A stretch of 64,000 nucleotides of DNA, taken from Escherichia phage LF82-4. This document shows positions 14,582 through 39,001 of the stretch, piece by piece. The notes beneath the pieces are model-generated. The model had not been told where the DNA came from and did no database searches. It saw only the letters and a list, made by a program, of their open reading frames with translations. How positions within the stretch are numbered: the first letter of the stretch is position 1; each line of letters starts with the position of its first letter. Made by a program: the position numbers and the translations under genes. Where the stretch lies: the sequence record PV660448, one strand, 5' to 3'.

Positions 14582-14878
14582 TTATTGTTCTACCCAGGCA
14601 CAGGAAACTTCGAAATCAGGACCACCGTATTCCCAGTGATATTCACCAACAGGAATCCAGTCACCGTGCTCGTTTTCTTCGTAGTCTTCAGGTTCAAGAC
14701 CAACGAATCGCCATTGAACACCTATGATTCGATTACCCATTAATATACGAAATTCACCCCATGGATTATCGATAGCATATTGGATATCGTTCTTAGCACG
14801 AGAACACATTTCTTGATATAACAAAGCTTCTAATTCGCCCTGATCATAAGGGCCCGGGAAAGTTAAATCAATACTCAT
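14582..14878 (-). CDS. hypothetical protein
   Basis: 98 aa ORF. Confidence 0.45.
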   Translation of the reverse strand: MSIDLTFPGPYDQGELEALLYQEMCSRAKNDIQYAIDNPWGEFRILMGNRIIGVQWRFVGLEPEDYEENEHGDWIPVGEYHWEYGGPDFEVSCAWVEQ

Positions 14879-15138
14879 TTAAAATATTCTCGCAGTTGGT
14901 CAAATCCACCAATATGACTTCCATCAGGAGCAAATACTTGAGGCATAGTCAATCCAACTTGTGATTCACGTCCTAGTTTATTCAGAAGCTCGTCAATTTT
15001 TTCTTCATCAAATACACCTTTCTCTGGCATAACATTAATGAATTCGAATGGCTGTTTCTTAACAGTCAGCAATCGTTTCGCATTATCACAATAAATGCAT
15101 TTATGAATAGTAGAGTCATACCCGTACACTTTAAACAT
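14875..15138 (-). CDS. nrdC: thioredoxin/glutaredoxin NrdC
   Basis: MFKVYGYDSTIHKCIYCDNAKRLL with CxxC; 87 aa; matches T4 NrdC from memory. Confidence 0.9.
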   Translation of the reverse strand: MFKVYGYDSTIHKCIYCDNAKRLLTVKKQPFEFINVMPEKGVFDEEKIDELLNKLGRESQVGLTMPQVFAPDGSHIGGFDQLREYFK

Positions 15139-15544
15139 TATTTTTCCTTTCATCGATTAAATATGCAATGCCAAATACAATACATGTAATAAAACCTGTG
15201 ATACAGATAGAAACCAACAACACTGTACCAAAGAACCAAATCAAGTTATCTTTAGTAGTTTGTTTGATATCCATCTCACGAATTTCTATAGCTATCGTAT
15301 CACCTTTATTCAGAAGCGTATAAAACGACGGTGATACACGCCTGTCAAAAACTCGTCCTTGCTCATCTTTATAGACTGCAATAAATTCTAATTTAGAATA
15401 TTTTCCTGTAGATTGGCCTGAGATTAATTCCACTACCTCCACAGGAATTACTTTAGTTTCCATGTAAGTATTCTGACTGTTCCAAATGAATGGAATAACG
15501 GCAAAAACTAAAGCTGCGATAAAACAACGAAGGCTATATCTCAT
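15131..15544 (-). CDS. hypothetical membrane protein
   Basis: 137 aa, N- and C-terminal hydrophobic helices. Confidence 0.5.
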   Translation of the reverse strand: MRYSLRCFIAALVFAVIPFIWNSQNTYMETKVIPVEVVELISGQSTGKYSKLEFIAVYKDEQGRVFDRRVSPSFYTLLNKGDTIAIEIREMDIKQTTKDNLIWFFGTVLLVSICITGFITCIVFGIAYLIDERKNNV

Positions 15545-15849
15545 TATAATATTCTCTCAAATTTGTGGAAGCATTTACGGCATTTCAATTTCAAGTTATC
15601 AGTGGTCCAGTTAACCAGTTGGACTTGGATAGTTCCACATTCCGGGCATGGATGTTTTGCTGCTGATTTGGCAGCATTTTCACGTCGTTCAACCATTTTC
15701 ATTATTTCGTTCCATGCTGGAGGAACGAACTCTTCTTCACCGTGGATTTTATCTCGCTGAACAAATTCAATCTTTGAACTATCGTCAATAAACTTAACCA
15801 AGCCATGATTAGTGCTCATATCAATATCCTCTAAAAGACGTAGTTTCAT
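15544..15849 (-). CDS. hypothetical zinc-ribbon protein
   Basis: 101 aa; CPECG...CRKC four-cysteine motif. Confidence 0.5.
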   Translation of the reverse strand: MKLRLLEDIDMSTNHGLVKFIDDSSKIEFVQRDKIHGEEEFVPPAWNEIMKMVERRENAAKSAAKHPCPECGTIQVQLVNWTTDNLKLKCRKCFHKFERIL

Positions 15850-16799
15850 TATAACACCTCAATGGCATTTCGTAAACCGTCCGCTTTCGCATTCAGAGCT
15901 TTTAACGATTTAGTCTGTTCTTTAATCTGGGCTTCGACTTCTTTCAGACGAGATTTGAGATATTCACGTTCTTCGCTCAAGTTGTCAACTTTTTCTACTT
16001 TAGGTTCTTTAATAGTCTTAAGTTTATACTCGTTAGGGTTCTTCAGCTTAATTCGGGTGCGAGAACTGTATAACATTGAACCGTTATCTTCGGATTCGTC
16101 GAACGTTTCAACAACATCCATAGTCTCTAACAATGTAATAAGTTTATAAGACAATGAACGAACGGTTTTGTTATGCTTATTAATTTCTTCAGCTTTCATG
16201 GTACCGAGATTACGTGAGTAGTAATAAGGAACCTGGATATCAATTGATAATGATGCGTTACCATTACCGGTCGGTTTGAATACTGCAGTAACCCAATCTT
16301 TAACATGAACTTTATTTGTACGACCATCACCGCCCGTGAATAATTTACGAGAATGTTTAAAAAGCATATTCACTTGGTTATTGAATTCACAAGCAAATTT
16401 ATCAGCGAATTTAGTTTCAGGAATGGTAGATAACCAATCAGCCAAATGAGTCTTTTTAACATCATTAATAATAGTGAATTCAACCAAATCAGTTTTAGAT
16501 GTCACAGATTTAATAAAGCTCGGTTTCATAAAGTTTTTAATGTTATCGCGAGCTACAGTAGAAGATAATAAACGAGAACGTTTGAACCATTGAAGCAGTG
16601 TCCCTAATGAATGAGAATACGCATTCTGAGTATCTTTACAGATATGATTTTCTTGACCTGTGTATGTACCAAAATCGCGAAGAATACCACTTACTACATC
16701 TCGGTGTGGAACATCAAATCCTAGTGCACCAACAGCGCGCTGGGCACGAACGTTAGCGATAAGACCGGCAAAGTATTCAATGTAATGTGAACGTGTCAT
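15849..16799 (-). CDS. hypothetical protein with C-terminal coiled coil
   Basis: 316 aa; own early-type promoter upstream; heptad-rich C-terminus. Confidence 0.55.
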   Translation of the reverse strand: MTRSHYIEYFAGLIANVRAQRAVGALGFDVPHRDVVSGILRDFGTYTGQENHICKDTQNAYSHSLGTLLQWFKRSRLLSSTVARDNIKNFMKPSFIKSVTSKTDLVEFTIINDVKKTHLADWLSTIPETKFADKFACEFNNQVNMLFKHSRKLFTGGDGRTNKVHVKDWVTAVFKPTGNGNASLSIDIQVPYYYSRNLGTMKAEEINKHNKTVRSLSYKLITLLETMDVVETFDESEDNGSMLYSSRTRIKLKNPNEYKLKTIKEPKVEKVDNLSEEREYLKSRLKEVEAQIKEQTKSLKALNAKADGLRNAIEVL

Positions 16800-16823
16800 A
16801 ATATTTTCCTCTCGTTAAGATAG

Positions 16824-16854
16824 ATTTATTATACTCCAACCATCCTTGGTTGTA
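16824..16854. repeat. 31-nt exact repeat, copy 1 (promoter cassette)
   Basis: ATTTATTATACTCCAACCATCCTTGGTTGTA identical at 16824..16854 and 17844..17874; partial third copy near 38663..38690. Confidence 0.9.
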
Positions 16855-16857
16855 AAC
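16828..16857 (-). promoter_or_regulatory. early sigma70-type promoter with spacer stem-loop
   Basis: Minus strand GTTTACA, 17-nt spacer containing CAACCA/TGGTTG inverted repeat, TATAAT. Confidence 0.55.
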
Positions 16858-16861
16858 CGTT

Positions 16862-17821
16862 TTATGATTTTAATGCATTCATTGCATTAAAAAGTTTAGA
16901 GTACTGCAACTGGAGATTCGTTACAACACTTTGAGCATCACGAAGCTTAGCTTGTGCTTTGTCAAGTTCAACGGACAGTTGGTCTGCAGTAGCCTTGATT
17001 TGGTTGTAATGATAATCTTCGGCCGGAAGAAGGTCATTAGAAACATTTAGTTTTACTGCCGACAGTTTGCACACATTTGGCAAACCTTTAAACATACCGG
17101 GTTGTGTCGGAGAATATGCGCTTAGAACCTCTGCATTACCGACTGGTGTTGCTGTAATATTGCCTTCAAACAATGCATTTTCCTTTTTAAGATTTTGATA
17201 GTATTCAGAGTCTTTGTGCCACCATGGCGCAGGAACCTTTTTACCAATAGATACACGAGCCTGGATAGCGATATGGCCCTTATTCTTGATAGGGTCGATA
17301 ATATTAAGCTCACGAGAATAAATTGCTTTAATTTGGTGAATATTATCACCTAACACTTCCAACGCTTGGTGGAATACACGAGCAACGTTATCGTTCTTAG
17401 GTTTATATGTAAGAGTGAACTCGTTCTCACTGATAACCATGATTTCTAACTTATCGTAAGTATATTTCAAATGTTTCATGTTAATTGCTTGAGGACGAAT
17501 ACGAGAAGCAATGGCCATCAGATTGTTAAGGTTATTTCGGAACTGTTTAGCGAAATATTGTCCTTCACCGCCGATACAAAAATTACGAAGTTTCTGTTTG
17601 GCTAATAAACGGCTGAACTCACCATTTTTAATGAACTCTTTAACGGGTGTGTTAGTAATGCATTCAAATTGAGTAAACATACGAGAATTAATCCCATAAT
17701 ATGAACAGATTTCCTCAATCTCTTCAGGAGTCTTTACAGGCATACGGATAGGATTAGGTCCTGGAGTATATGCGTTCGAGGTAAATTCTTTGATAAGTTC
17801 TCTACGTGTAATAAAAGCCAT
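16862..17821 (-). CDS. hypothetical protein with C-terminal coiled coil
   Basis: 319 aa; preceded by duplicated promoter cassette. Confidence 0.55.
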   Translation of the reverse strand: MAFITRRELIKEFTSNAYTPGPNPIRMPVKTPEEIEEICSYYGINSRMFTQFECITNTPVKEFIKNGEFSRLLAKQKLRNFCIGGEGQYFAKQFRNNLNNLMAIASRIRPQAINMKHLKYTYDKLEIMVISENEFTLTYKPKNDNVARVFHQALEVLGDNIHQIKAIYSRELNIIDPIKNKGHIAIQARVSIGKKVPAPWWHKDSEYYQNLKKENALFEGNITATPVGNAEVLSAYSPTQPGMFKGLPNVCKLSAVKLNVSNDLLPAEDYHYNQIKATADQLSVELDKAQAKLRDAQSVVTNLQLQYSKLFNAMNALKS

Positions 17822-17843
17822 TTTATATTCCTCATGTTGAAAA

Positions 17844-17874
17844 ATTTATTATACTCCAACCATCCTTGGTTGTA
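17844..17874. repeat. 31-nt exact repeat, copy 2 (promoter cassette)
   Basis: Identical to 16824..16854. Confidence 0.9.
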
Positions 17875-17877
17875 CAT
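17848..17877 (-). promoter_or_regulatory. early sigma70-type promoter (duplicate of 16828..16857 core)
   Basis: Shares 31-nt identical core with 16824..16854; -35 variant TGTACA. Confidence 0.5.
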
Positions 17878-18872
17878 CATTCCTTAAGAAGTTTTACTAC
17901 TTGAATAAGATTAGCTCGTTCTGTTTTATTTTTACCGTTTAAGCCTGCTAATCGTGAGATTTCATCGTCAGTCTGTTGAATAGTTACATTAAGTTCGTTA
18001 ATCAAAGCTTCAAAGTATTTGATTTGCTCAGCATGTTTTGATTCAAATTTCTGAACCGGAATAACGTCTTGGTTCAGTCCATCAATAAGGTCTTTAAGAG
18101 CATCTTCTTGGTTGATATCATATTCAACTTCCTTTATTTCTTCAACGAGCTCGTCTTTATATCTAACGTCTTTTAGTCCTGGTGCTGGTCCTGAAATCTC
18201 TTCTTTAAGAGTACAAACATACCCAATACGGTATCCAATGCCGTCTCGCTTGATATCAACTTCGTCGATAAATCCACAATGTTTAAGTCCAGAGCCGATT
18301 ATGTCAAAATATCCTTGACGACGTCCTTCAAACGTTACACGAACTACTAAGACAGTTTTGCCACCGACCTTTTGAAGCTCACATTTATAAAAGTCCGTTG
18401 AACCTGAATAACGTGGATGAGTTTTAAAGTTCATCTGACGATCTAGGCCCATTTGTAAACGTGCTGTTACGGCCATAAAACGTGTTTGGTTCTCGTTAAG
18501 ATGAGCAACAATCCATTTCAAAGGCATTTTACACTGTTCACGACCGAACAAATCAGTACGTCCTAGATTACGCAGGATGTTGTTAGAGTTAATCATCGAC
18601 AGAACGTTAAGTTTATTCAACGCGCTGAAGATTCCGTCAGCCATTGATTTTCCATAACCTTTACACGCTTTAATAAGTGCTCGCGGCAGATTAGTATAGA
18701 TTTCAGACGGCATATGAAAATCAAATTTACTAGTCAGTAATTGATGAACTTGGATAGCAATTTGCTCATAATTAAGTGCTCTGCGATCGTTATGGTCTTT
18801 AAACCACACTTTAATCTGTGAAGCACATAAACCGTTAATTTCATGTTTTACCGCATCAGATGTAATGCTCAT
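17877..18872 (-). CDS. hypothetical protein with C-terminal coiled coil
   Basis: 331 aa. Confidence 0.55.
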   Translation of the reverse strand: MSITSDAVKHEINGLCASQIKVWFKDHNDRRALNYEQIAIQVHQLLTSKFDFHMPSEIYTNLPRALIKACKGYGKSMADGIFSALNKLNVLSMINSNNILRNLGRTDLFGREQCKMPLKWIVAHLNENQTRFMAVTARLQMGLDRQMNFKTHPRYSGSTDFYKCELQKVGGKTVLVVRVTFEGRRQGYFDIIGSGLKHCGFIDEVDIKRDGIGYRIGYVCTLKEEISGPAPGLKDVRYKDELVEEIKEVEYDINQEDALKDLIDGLNQDVIPVQKFESKHAEQIKYFEALINELNVTIQQTDDEISRLAGLNGKNKTERANLIQVVKLLKE

Positions 18873-18934
18873 AACTATTTCCTCAGATTGAATTGGAACT
18901 CAAAACCATTATAACCCGTCCTTGGGTAAAGCGT

Positions 18935-19462: not shown

Positions 19463-19488
19463 GTTTTACCTCCAGTAGTTGATAGGTC

Positions 19489-19518
19489 TATAATAACACA
19501 ACCATAGACCTTGTAAAC
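19489..19518 (-). promoter_or_regulatory. early sigma70-type promoter with flanking inverted repeat
   Basis: Minus strand GTTTACA -17- TATTAT; arms AGGTCTAT/ATAGACCT. Confidence 0.5.
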
Positions 19519-19520
19519 AA

Positions 19521-19808
19521 CTAAAAGAAACTTTTTTCAGTATTTTTTCCACTGAACCAAACCGACTTCGGGGTTTTCTGTAACTTTTCAGATTTAAGTT
19601 TCTCTTCCTGTTCTTTCTTATATACACTCTTGTCGTACTGGAGCATCTCTATGGCATTCTTTTGCAAACGATCTAAGGTAATTAAGGCTTTAGTTTTTCC
19701 TTTCAAGGAAGAGTCCTGGCGAACCTCCTCGCTATATTGCATTGTAGAACTAACCATACGATGAGCATAGAGTTCGACTGCGGCTTTAATTTTTTGCATA
19801 AAATCCAT
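19521..19808 (-). CDS. hypothetical protein
   Basis: 95 aa ORF. Confidence 0.4.
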   Translation of the reverse strand: MDFMQKIKAAVELYAHRMVSSTMQYSEEVRQDSSLKGKTKALITLDRLQKNAIEMLQYDKSVYKKEQEEKLKSEKLQKTPKSVWFSGKNTEKSFF

Positions 19809-20927: not shown

Positions 20928-21010
20928 TTTATTCTCCAAATTTACTCATTTCGTTTTGATAGGTCTATAATAACATATCCTAAAAACATGTACACTACTT
21001 TTTAAAAATA

Positions 21011-38645: not shown

Positions 38646-38666
38646 GTTGATAAGTCTATAGTATCA
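38646..38666. repeat. 21-nt repeat, copy 1
   Basis: GTTGATAAGTCTATAGTATCA identical at 38646..38666 and 39018..39038, both in promoter regions. Confidence 0.85.
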
Positions 38667-38695
38667 CCATCCTTGGTGCTTGTACATCATTATTT

Positions 38696-39001
38696 TTAAT
38701 TTTTCCAACTTAACAACTTGTAGTGTCCTTCATTCGTACGAGGTTTATCCCAATAGATATTAATAAACGATGTCTCACCAATAGAAGTCGGCGGTTTTTT
38801 CTCTACAGTAAGACCTTCGCTTTCTAACCACTCAATGACTTTTGTAGATAAAGCTAAAGAAACATGTAATGGACAACGACAGTATTTTTCACCTTTAGCT
38901 GAAGACTCGTACATCATTTCTAAAATACGTTTTTGCACTTTTTTAAAAATAGTTTCAGCAGATTCTTCAGATTTTTTATTCAGTTCAGTGTAAAGACTCA
39001 T
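38696..39001 (-). CDS. hypothetical protein
   Basis: 101 aa; CRCP motif; GGAG RBS. Confidence 0.45.
   Translation of the reverse strand: MSLYTELNKKSEESAETIFKKVQKRILEMMYESSAKGEKYCRCPLHVSLALSTKVIEWLESEGLTVEKKPPTSIGETSFINIYWDKPRTNEGHYKLLSWKN

Follow-up and report, generated by a model that had tools for sequence, protein, structure and literature searches.

Three successive open reading frames (ORFs) of 316, 319 and 331 amino acids (aa) span positions 15849-18872, all on the minus strand, of the 64,000-nucleotide (nt) stretch of Escherichia phage LF82-4 DNA (record PV660448) that was analysed here and is called the window below. The three encoded proteins are very probably remote paralogues, because profile comparisons, two bridging proteins from other phages, motifs that remain collinear over the full length and Foldseek searches with an AlphaFold model connect them. 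More generally, NrdC.3, NrdC.4, NrdC.5 and NrdC.6 appear to form one superfamily specific to T4-like phages, with solid support for NrdC.3/NrdC.4 and moderate support for the inclusion of NrdC.5 and NrdC.6. The array as a whole is best explained, with reasonable probability, by anciently duplicated, fast-diverging tandem paralogues that would act against host defences and whose intergenic cassettes would serve both as promoters and as patches of homology. The preliminary description, made from the letters of this DNA, had proposed a modular array of related but sequence-diverged proteins and had set this against one-to-one counterparts among unrelated T4 genes. Profile alignment, the bridging proteins and Foldseek bear out the diverged array. 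One-to-one orthology with nrdC.3, nrdC.5 and nrdC.6 of T4 and RB69 was indeed found, but those genes are themselves remotely related to one another, although databases treat them as unrelated hypothetical proteins. Three points were not found in the literature searched, namely, that the four families can be united, that other genera have a single copy in a state resembling the ancestral one, and that the hairpin in the promoter spacer covaries.

Orthology and probable remote paralogy of the three proteins

The window belongs to a Mosigvirus, an RB69-like phage of the T4 type, RB69 itself being classified as Mosigvirus. In RB69 (NC_004928), nrdC.3, nrdC.5 and nrdC.6 are one-to-one orthologues of the array genes, in identical order and on the same strand, with 91-98% identity; the RB69 annotation names its copies nrdC.6, nrdC.5 and nrdC.3, and the genes are already in GenBank as RB69-type nrdC.3/.5/.6. 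The 316-aa protein is 91% identical to RB69 NrdC.3 and 56% identical to T4 NrdC.3 (BLASTP, over 316 aa), and its gene is syntenic with nrdC.3, upstream of nrdC.2. The 319-aa protein shares 26% identity with T4 NrdC.5 (BLASTP, E-value (E) = 9e-11) and matches Pfam family DUF7235 from end to end (E = 1.8e-119; 399 bits, the cut-off being 30; all 307 positions of the profile covered); NrdC.5 of T4 and of VR7 score much alike against this profile, also end to end. T4 nrdC.5 occupies the same slot between nrdC.6 and nrdC.3/4, is likewise early and has a similar C-terminal helix. The 331-aa protein is 98% identical to RB69 NrdC.6, 29% identical to T4 NrdC.6 (BLASTP, E = 2e-18) and 29-33% identical to T4-type NrdC.6 proteins over ~300 aa (E down to 1e-26), its gene lying downstream of nrdC.8 as nrdC.6 does. 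When the three proteins were joined into one query and 1.84 billion cluster representatives were scanned with HMMER, only 11 clusters were found, all of them close relatives or fragments and none a remote bridge, and sequence searches of the PDB found no solved structure related to the three proteins. As a side observation, nrdC.6 of the T4 reference (locus L001, 5067-5894) is annotated with 275 aa, compared with 295 aa in its close relatives, and tblastn matches it in two pieces; judging from these matches, it appears to be C-terminally frameshifted or truncated and to lack the terminal helix.

Hidden Markov model (HMM) comparisons against a set of 321 decoy ORFs linked nrdC.3 with nrdC.4 at E = 1e-7 to 1e-10, and hhalign gave 96-98% for this pair, still 97-98% without the last 60 residues. 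The remaining families are connected through two bridging proteins. One of them, 315 aa long, comes from Klebsiella phage R3_1 (Marfavirus), which has a single copy of its gene, syntenic with the array. It matches, each time in register, the N-terminus of the 316-aa protein (E = 1.7e-5), nearly the whole of NrdC.4 (E = 8e-6) and, at E = 2e-8 to 4e-5, the C-terminal part of DUF7235 proteins; its hhalign values are 97-99% against NrdC.3+4 and 93-97% against NrdC.5. The other is a 335-aa protein of Enterobacter phage IME523 (Kanagawavirus), which is related to the R3_1 protein (tblastn against the whole phage collection, E = 2e-7) and to the NrdC.6 family (BLASTP, E = 1.5e-7 to 8.6e-4; hhalign 90%, E = 1.5e-6). 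With the last 60 aa removed, the combined nrdC.3, nrdC.4 and bridge alignment gave 72-86% against nrdC.5 (E = 3e-5 to 5e-7), and all of these together 60-74% against nrdC.6 (E of about 1e-5 to 3e-5). These coiled-coil-free alignments of NrdC.5 and NrdC.6 land on one motif block, at approximately residues 50-150. In the joint alignment, motifs are collinear over the full length: TRxxYIxxF at the N-terminus, SRLL...I.NF, F...F.......L...ASRL..G.D.Q..FK, a long helix, PV..E.H..QI (in NrdC.5 and NrdC.6) and a terminal L..A[IL]..LK. Internal repeats were found in none of the families. The copy number of the superfamily is one in Marfavirus and Kanagawavirus and 2-4 in the T-even genera, with two copies in Mosigvirus ESCO47, three in the window and four in T4.

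One strong match had to be discarded. The HMM hit of nrdC.3 residues 35-139 to T4 NrdC.5 residues 161-272 (E = 1.7e-15, hhalign 97.6%) is out of register and proved to be an artefact: it was gone once the natural fusion protein P0033 (see below) had been taken out of the nrdC.3 alignment, and a reading in terms of domain shuffling or an internal repeat was dropped with it. All conclusions on paralogy rest on alignments cleaned of P0033. A match of the merged profile to a 109-aa ORF of the window (E = 0.004) was judged to be coiled-coil noise, and this value was taken as the warning level.

The AlphaFold model of the 331-aa protein has a pLDDT (predicted local distance difference test) of 67.8, with ~80-88 over the first 150 residues, and that of the 316-aa protein, built with 29 homologues, has 50.9. 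Both contain the same order of elements, namely, a helical N-terminal domain (with a helix pair at ~118-149), a β-hairpin at ~162-180, a long helix, a second hairpin, a disordered linker and a C-terminal helix. Foldseek searches of BFVD with the 331-aa model returned 14 matches at E ≤ 1e-3, all to T4-like-phage proteins of 280-378 aa. Among them are an IME523 protein of equal length (E = 1.5e-7), which we took to be the ORF of the second bridge, and an nrdC.3 representative (E = 4e-4, probability 0.99; a model-based match, at pLDDT 67.8 and with template modelling (TM) scores of 0.2-0.5). Two of these targets are also matched by the model of the 316-aa protein, whose BFVD matches have TM-scores of ~0.2 and serve as corroboration only. 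No likeness to any solved protein structure that hints at a mechanism was found.

The heptad-rich C-terminal segment that had been described for each protein is borne out by a heptad score, albeit a crude one, and by the two models. The best 28-aa window falls within the last 50 residues of each protein, and only 0-2% of shuffled sequences score as high; AlphaFold places C-terminal helices at residues 275-315 of the 316-aa protein and at 281-308 and 313-330 of the 331-aa protein. The terminal helix motif h-x-x-[AV]-h-x-x-L-K is common to all four families. A further detail concerns residues ~225-270 of Mosigvirus NrdC.6 (window ~18063-18200), where a linker of ~40 aa (..VCTLKEE.., ..DALKDLIDGLNQDV..) is absent from T4-type NrdC.6 and resembles the equivalent linker of NrdC.4 (..VVTLREV.., ..TTLEDLIDNLNNE..), the Mosigviruses themselves having no nrdC.4. 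This resemblance possibly reflects an old exchange between paralogues.

Promoter cassettes, spacer hairpins and gene gain and loss

A promoter-like sequence, TTTACA-N17-TATAAT, lies upstream of the 316-aa gene (11/12 consensus matches, the best site in a 10-kb sigma-70 scan), and TGTACA-N17-TATAAT (10/12) upstream of the 319-aa gene. The identical 31-nt core TACAACCAAGGATGGTTGGAGTATAATAAAT occurs at both places (16824-16854 and 17844-17874), as the preliminary description had stated; a 25-nt part of it is found twice in the window against an expectation of zero. That description had also given every gene an early promoter of its own, which holds for these two genes with their canonical N17 sites but not for the 331-aa gene. 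The cassette of the latter (core CCAAGGACGG) is degenerate, with an 11-nt spacer; it has neither canonical spacing nor an extended -10 element and was not called by the sigma-70 scan. Transcription of the 331-aa gene probably arrives by read-through from the putative nrdC.8 promoter or begins at a weak start that depends on the -10 box only. T4 nrdC.5 directly follows nrdC.6 and lacks a separate cassette, in contrast to the 319-aa gene of the window.

Hairpins of the form N-CCA-AGGA-TGG-N' are located between the -35 and -10 boxes in array intergenic regions of T4, RB5, RB69, VR7, P8, ESCO47 and the window. Their stems differ (CAACCA/TGGTTG, TTATACCA/TGGTATAA, TGCCACA/TGTGGTA, AGCCA/TGGCT, ACCCA/TGGGT and CTTCCA/TGGAGG), and 9 of the 11 cassette variants have stems of 5-8 bp around the AGGA loop. 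In the hairpin columns 89% of the cells pair, with compensatory changes at four of the six pairs; covariation scores 0.60, as against 0.15 in shuffles (none of 500 as high) and 0.02-0.21 in slid controls. Perfect AGGA hairpins with a stem of at least 5 bp occur three times in the window (0.55 expected), all on the minus strand and all in promoter spacers. The third copy (38665-38678) stands far from the array in a promoter-like cassette at 38650-38700 of the minus strand, which consists of TGTACA, a spacer with the hairpin CACCA-AGGA-TGGTG, TACTAT and a start codon ~45 nt downstream. Because this cassette has the same design at such a distance from the array, it suggests that promoters with an AGGA hairpin in the spacer constitute a genome-wide class.

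Cassettes of this type have already been described. PeSL elements (Arbiol et al. 2010, PMC2839356; Comeau et al. 2014, PMC4122927) combine a sigma-70-like early promoter with a stem-loop in intergenic spaces of hyperplastic regions and, judged by its sequence, the array cassette is a PeSL-type element: like PeSLs, it is repeated within the genome and located at an indel junction (in ESCO47, see below). The copy of the 316-aa gene fits the PST/T4 PeSL consensus TTTACW-N17-TAYWAT (PMC2839356, PMC4122927), while the 319-aa gene has TGTACA, with one -35 position off the consensus; the PeSL spacing of ~17 nt is kept at two of the three genes, the exception being the cassette of the 331-aa gene. Two differences should be noted. 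The published stem-loop lies upstream of the promoter, whereas that of the array is inside the -35/-10 spacer, and the published arms are G-tracts and C-tracts, whereas the array has a conserved AGGA loop on a short, A/T-containing stem without a terminator-like T-run.

Mosigvirus ESCO47 lacks the middle gene (nrdC.5) and has one cassette left. This cassette is a hybrid that joins the left flank of the upstream copy to the right flank of the downstream copy, with the crossover within the common core, which is the expected product of recombination inside the shared core. The junction supports the earlier suggestion that genes of the array are possibly swapped by recombination at the promoter cassettes, in this case with gain or loss of the middle gene. 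The locus provides a clean natural example of gene gain and loss through recombination between promoter cassettes, together with a covarying hairpin within the promoter spacer.

Deletions inside the array occur in nature, as two further cases show. P0033, a called ORF of 299 aa from a 167-kb contig, is a natural in-frame nrdC.5/nrdC.3 fusion. It starts at the equivalent of NrdC.5 Met146 and consists of NrdC.5 residues 146-272 followed by NrdC.3 residues ~141-309, with microhomology at the junction (..KFNKVN|MLFKH..). Phage ACG-C40 (locus L003, 6805-7219) retains a frameshifted nrdC.5/nrdC.3 remnant.

Proposed function and alternative explanations

Expressed alone from a plasmid, T4 nrdC.5 enables a T4 deletion mutant to plate again on cells with Dsr1, a SIR2 sirtuin defence (Srikant et al. 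2022, PMC9391042), and T4 nrdC.1, from the same region, inhibits Septu (bioRxiv 10.1101/2025.11.20.689424). Since T4 NrdC.5 counters Dsr1 and the nearby nrdC.1 counters Septu, a diversified anti-defence array appears to be the most likely reading of the locus, and it is in this sense that we infer the proteins of the window to be functionally related, as the preliminary description had supposed. The array proteins are 26-56% identical to their T4 orthologues, compared with 77-83% for the flanking nrdC.8 and nrdC.10. Early expression, dispensability in laboratory hosts, a copy number of 1-4 and divergence beyond that of the flanking genes fit an accessory array engaged in an arms race.

We propose the following scenario. 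The host sigma-70 RNA polymerase would transcribe the array genes right after infection, the 316-aa and 319-aa genes from their own near-consensus early promoters and the 331-aa gene most likely through read-through. The products, tandem paralogues of ancient duplication and fast divergence from a family confined to T4-like phages, would share one plan, with an all-helical N-terminal domain of ~150 aa, a small α/β middle domain, a flexible linker and a C-terminal amphipathic helix. The conserved helix would presumably drive oligomerisation, while the variable N-terminal and middle domains would recognise immune proteins of the host, so that each paralogue might neutralise a different anti-phage target. 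The repeated cassettes would act as short homology patches at which recombination removes or inserts single genes and leaves the expression of the neighbours intact. What the data support in this scenario is that promoter-like sequences are present, that the proteins are paralogous and that a recombination junction exists; the oligomerisation and the binding of targets are inferred.

A more specific version, in which a single-copy scaffold (a variable N-terminal domain for recognition and a constant C-terminal helix for oligomerisation) was duplicated and diversified in T-even phages, each copy is directed against a different defence protein and the hairpin-bearing cassettes are the exchange points for adding, dropping or swapping single antagonists, is offered as a tentative idea that we consider rather doubtful. 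According to it, NrdC.5 would target Dsr1 and the other members further effectors, possibly NAD+-depleting ones as well.

The internal-protein (IPI-IPIII) locus of T4 offers a precedent for such an organisation: it is a variable array in which one terminal module is conserved and the rest varies, its genes are shuffled and its members counter specific defences. The likeness is limited to this plan, as the internal proteins have no sequence relationship to the nrdC.3-6 family; they are packed into the virion, and the part that they have in common is an N-terminal capsid-targeting sequence, whereas the nrdC.3-6 family shares a C-terminal helix and a putative common fold. A comparison with this locus is also drawn from the discussion in PMC4122927.

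In T4-like phages, the majority of the genes in hyperplastic regions are without known function. If the four families are truly one, with one member proven to antagonise a sirtuin defence, then nrdC.3, nrdC.4 and nrdC.6, together with divergent alleles, become anti-defence candidates, as do the single-copy versions of the Klebsiella and Enterobacter phages. Such candidates bear on the prediction of host range and on the design of phage therapy.

Several results weigh against the account preferred here. Pairwise BLASTP among the three proteins finds no match, and PHROGs and Pfam hold them as separate families. Coiled-coil segments alone produce spurious E-values of ~0.004 in the decoy test, and the links to nrdC.5 and nrdC.6 hang on two bridging sequences, with hhalign values of 60-97% that vary with alignment composition. 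Moreover, the models of the two proteins are mediocre (pLDDT of 50.9 and 67.8) and their TM-scores to BFVD matches are 0.2-0.5, the 319-aa protein is merely 26% identical to T4 NrdC.5, the bearer of the known anti-Dsr1 activity, and the spacer hairpin is weak (-6.9 kcal/mol, z of about -0.6 to -1.2), no better than shuffles. The negative BLASTP result and the three separate families would be expected if the genes were unrelated orphans with only size, early expression and a C-terminal coiled coil in common, the weak similarity then reflecting composition and coiled-coil bias. Such an explanation could also invoke the fact that the cleaned nrdC.3 HMM reaches nrdC.5 at E = 0.019 only and the nrdC.3+4+5 HMM reaches nrdC.6 at E = 0.018-0.14 only, with a decoy at 0.12, and that one seemingly strong nrdC.3/nrdC.5 link turned out to come from a chimeric sequence. 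We nevertheless regard it as very improbable: the alignments of the bridging proteins stay in register from end to end, the signal survives loss of the last 60 residues, a single motif block carries it in both comparisons, Foldseek matches exclusively T4-like-phage proteins of the same size, nrdC.3 included, and the order of elements is identical in both AlphaFold models.

Granting paralogy, the proteins might still have a role other than anti-defence and act together, for example as a hetero-oligomer held by the C-terminal helices, in some other non-essential early function of host takeover. The end helix common to all four families could mediate mutual association, activity has been assigned to a single member of the family, T4 NrdC.5, and likeness to solved structures gives no hint of a mechanism. 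An obligate complex is, however, hard to square with a copy number that varies freely between one and four or with the rescue of plating on Dsr1 cells by T4 NrdC.5 alone (PMC9391042), and extreme divergence beside conserved neighbours suits an arms race better, so this alternative seems unlikely to us. As regards the cassettes, the intergenic repeat could be primarily an RNA element, such as a 3′ stabiliser, an attenuator or a processing signal, with gene gain and loss being incidental. Compensatory changes do preserve the stem in different phages and at different positions, and PeSL stem-loops have been shown to terminate transcription in RB49 (PMC2839356). As its own promoter initiates further downstream, the hairpin would be transcribed by read-through only. 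In addition, the cassette copies that precede nrdC.3, window nrdC.5 and VR7 nrdC.4 have GGAG after the stem, possibly a RegB-type cleavage site. On the other hand, in terms of sequence likeness the stem-loops do not resemble terminators, since they lack a T-run and the terminator scan called neither array site; the low stability mentioned above counts here too, and no Rfam family matches the element. The ESCO47 junction shows that recombination at the element occurs, and the two roles are compatible with each other; a primarily RNA-based role is conceivable, if not particularly probable.

Genomic setting and further observations

The 3-kb region is 100% identical to that of Escherichia phage LF82-1 and its siblings and ~97% identical to Shf125875, PhAPEC2 and other Mosigvirus/RB69-like genomes. 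An IMG/VR scan for the locus retrieved only two loci, near-identical to each other.

Table. Positions in the window of the array genes, their C-terminal segments and the intergenic elements
Feature	Position	Strand	Remarks
331-aa gene	17877..18872	-	RB69 nrdC.6 orthologue; homologues carry PF26899
319-aa gene	16862..17821	-	RB69 nrdC.5 orthologue; DUF7235 (PF23882), full-length
316-aa gene	15849..16799	-	RB69 and T4 nrdC.3 orthologue; all close homologues carry PF26897
C-terminal helix-turn-helix, 331-aa protein	17880..18032	-	residues 281-308 and 313-330, end ...NLIQVVKLLKE
C-terminal heptad-rich segment, 319-aa protein	16865..17035	-	residues ~263-319, end ...KLFNAMNALKS; heptad score, weak Pfam coiled-coil matches
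C-terminal amphipathic helix, 316-aa protein	15852..15977	-	residues ~275-316, end ...GLRNAIEVL
Predicted early sigma-70 promoter, 316-aa gene	16828..16856	-	inside/overlapping repeated core 16824-16854
Predicted early sigma-70 promoter, 319-aa gene	17848..17876	-	inside/overlapping repeated core 17844-17874
Hairpin CAACCA-AGGA-TGGTTG, followed by GGAG	16837..16852	-	in promoter spacer
Identical second hairpin copy	17857..17872	-	in promoter spacer
Degenerate cassette, 331-aa gene	18908..18930	-	TTTACC, 11-nt spacer with ACCC-AAGGAC-GGGT, TATAAT
Promoter-like site, nrdC.8	19490..19517	-	TTTACA N16 TATTAT with TG; consensus match alone

Along the direction of transcription, the array is followed by nrdC.2, a gene for an nrdC.7-like membrane protein and nrdC, which encodes thioredoxin; upstream of it lie nrdC.8, nrdC.9, nrdC.10 (a P-loop ATPase) and nrdC.11 (a nucleotidyltransferase). 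At 15131-15544 and 14875-15153 the gene order is unlike that of T4, with the nrdC.7-like gene directly upstream of nrdC. Comparison with the genes of T4 and RB69 showed that nrdC.1 and nrdC.4 are both absent from the window. T4 has nrdC.4 within the array and nrdC.1 nearby, whereas the Mosigviruses lack both and have their nrdC.7-like gene beside nrdC.

Many phage records in GenBank label homologues of nrdC.2-nrdC.11, including all three array genes, as 'thioredoxin'. A domain search found no thioredoxin domain in the homologues so labelled, and the labels appear to go back to the 'nrdC.x' locus names, an annotation error passed on from record to record.

Two observations concern promoter-like sequences outside the array cassettes. 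On the minus strand at 15848-15876, in the last codons of the 316-aa gene, there is TTTACG-N17-TATAAT with an upstream TG; its -10 box overlaps the stop/start junction with nrdC.2, the T4 equivalent is TATTGA, and the likeness to a promoter may be due to chance. On the same strand, the sequences that precede nrdC.8 (19463-19522) and nrdC.10 (20940-21000) have in common a different cassette (...GTTATTATAGACCTATCAA...), and T4 carries its own version, GGTACTATACAACTATCAAC, at both places. Because the copies are more alike within a genome than between genomes, their sequences suggest that the nrdC.8/nrdC.10 cassettes are under concerted evolution.

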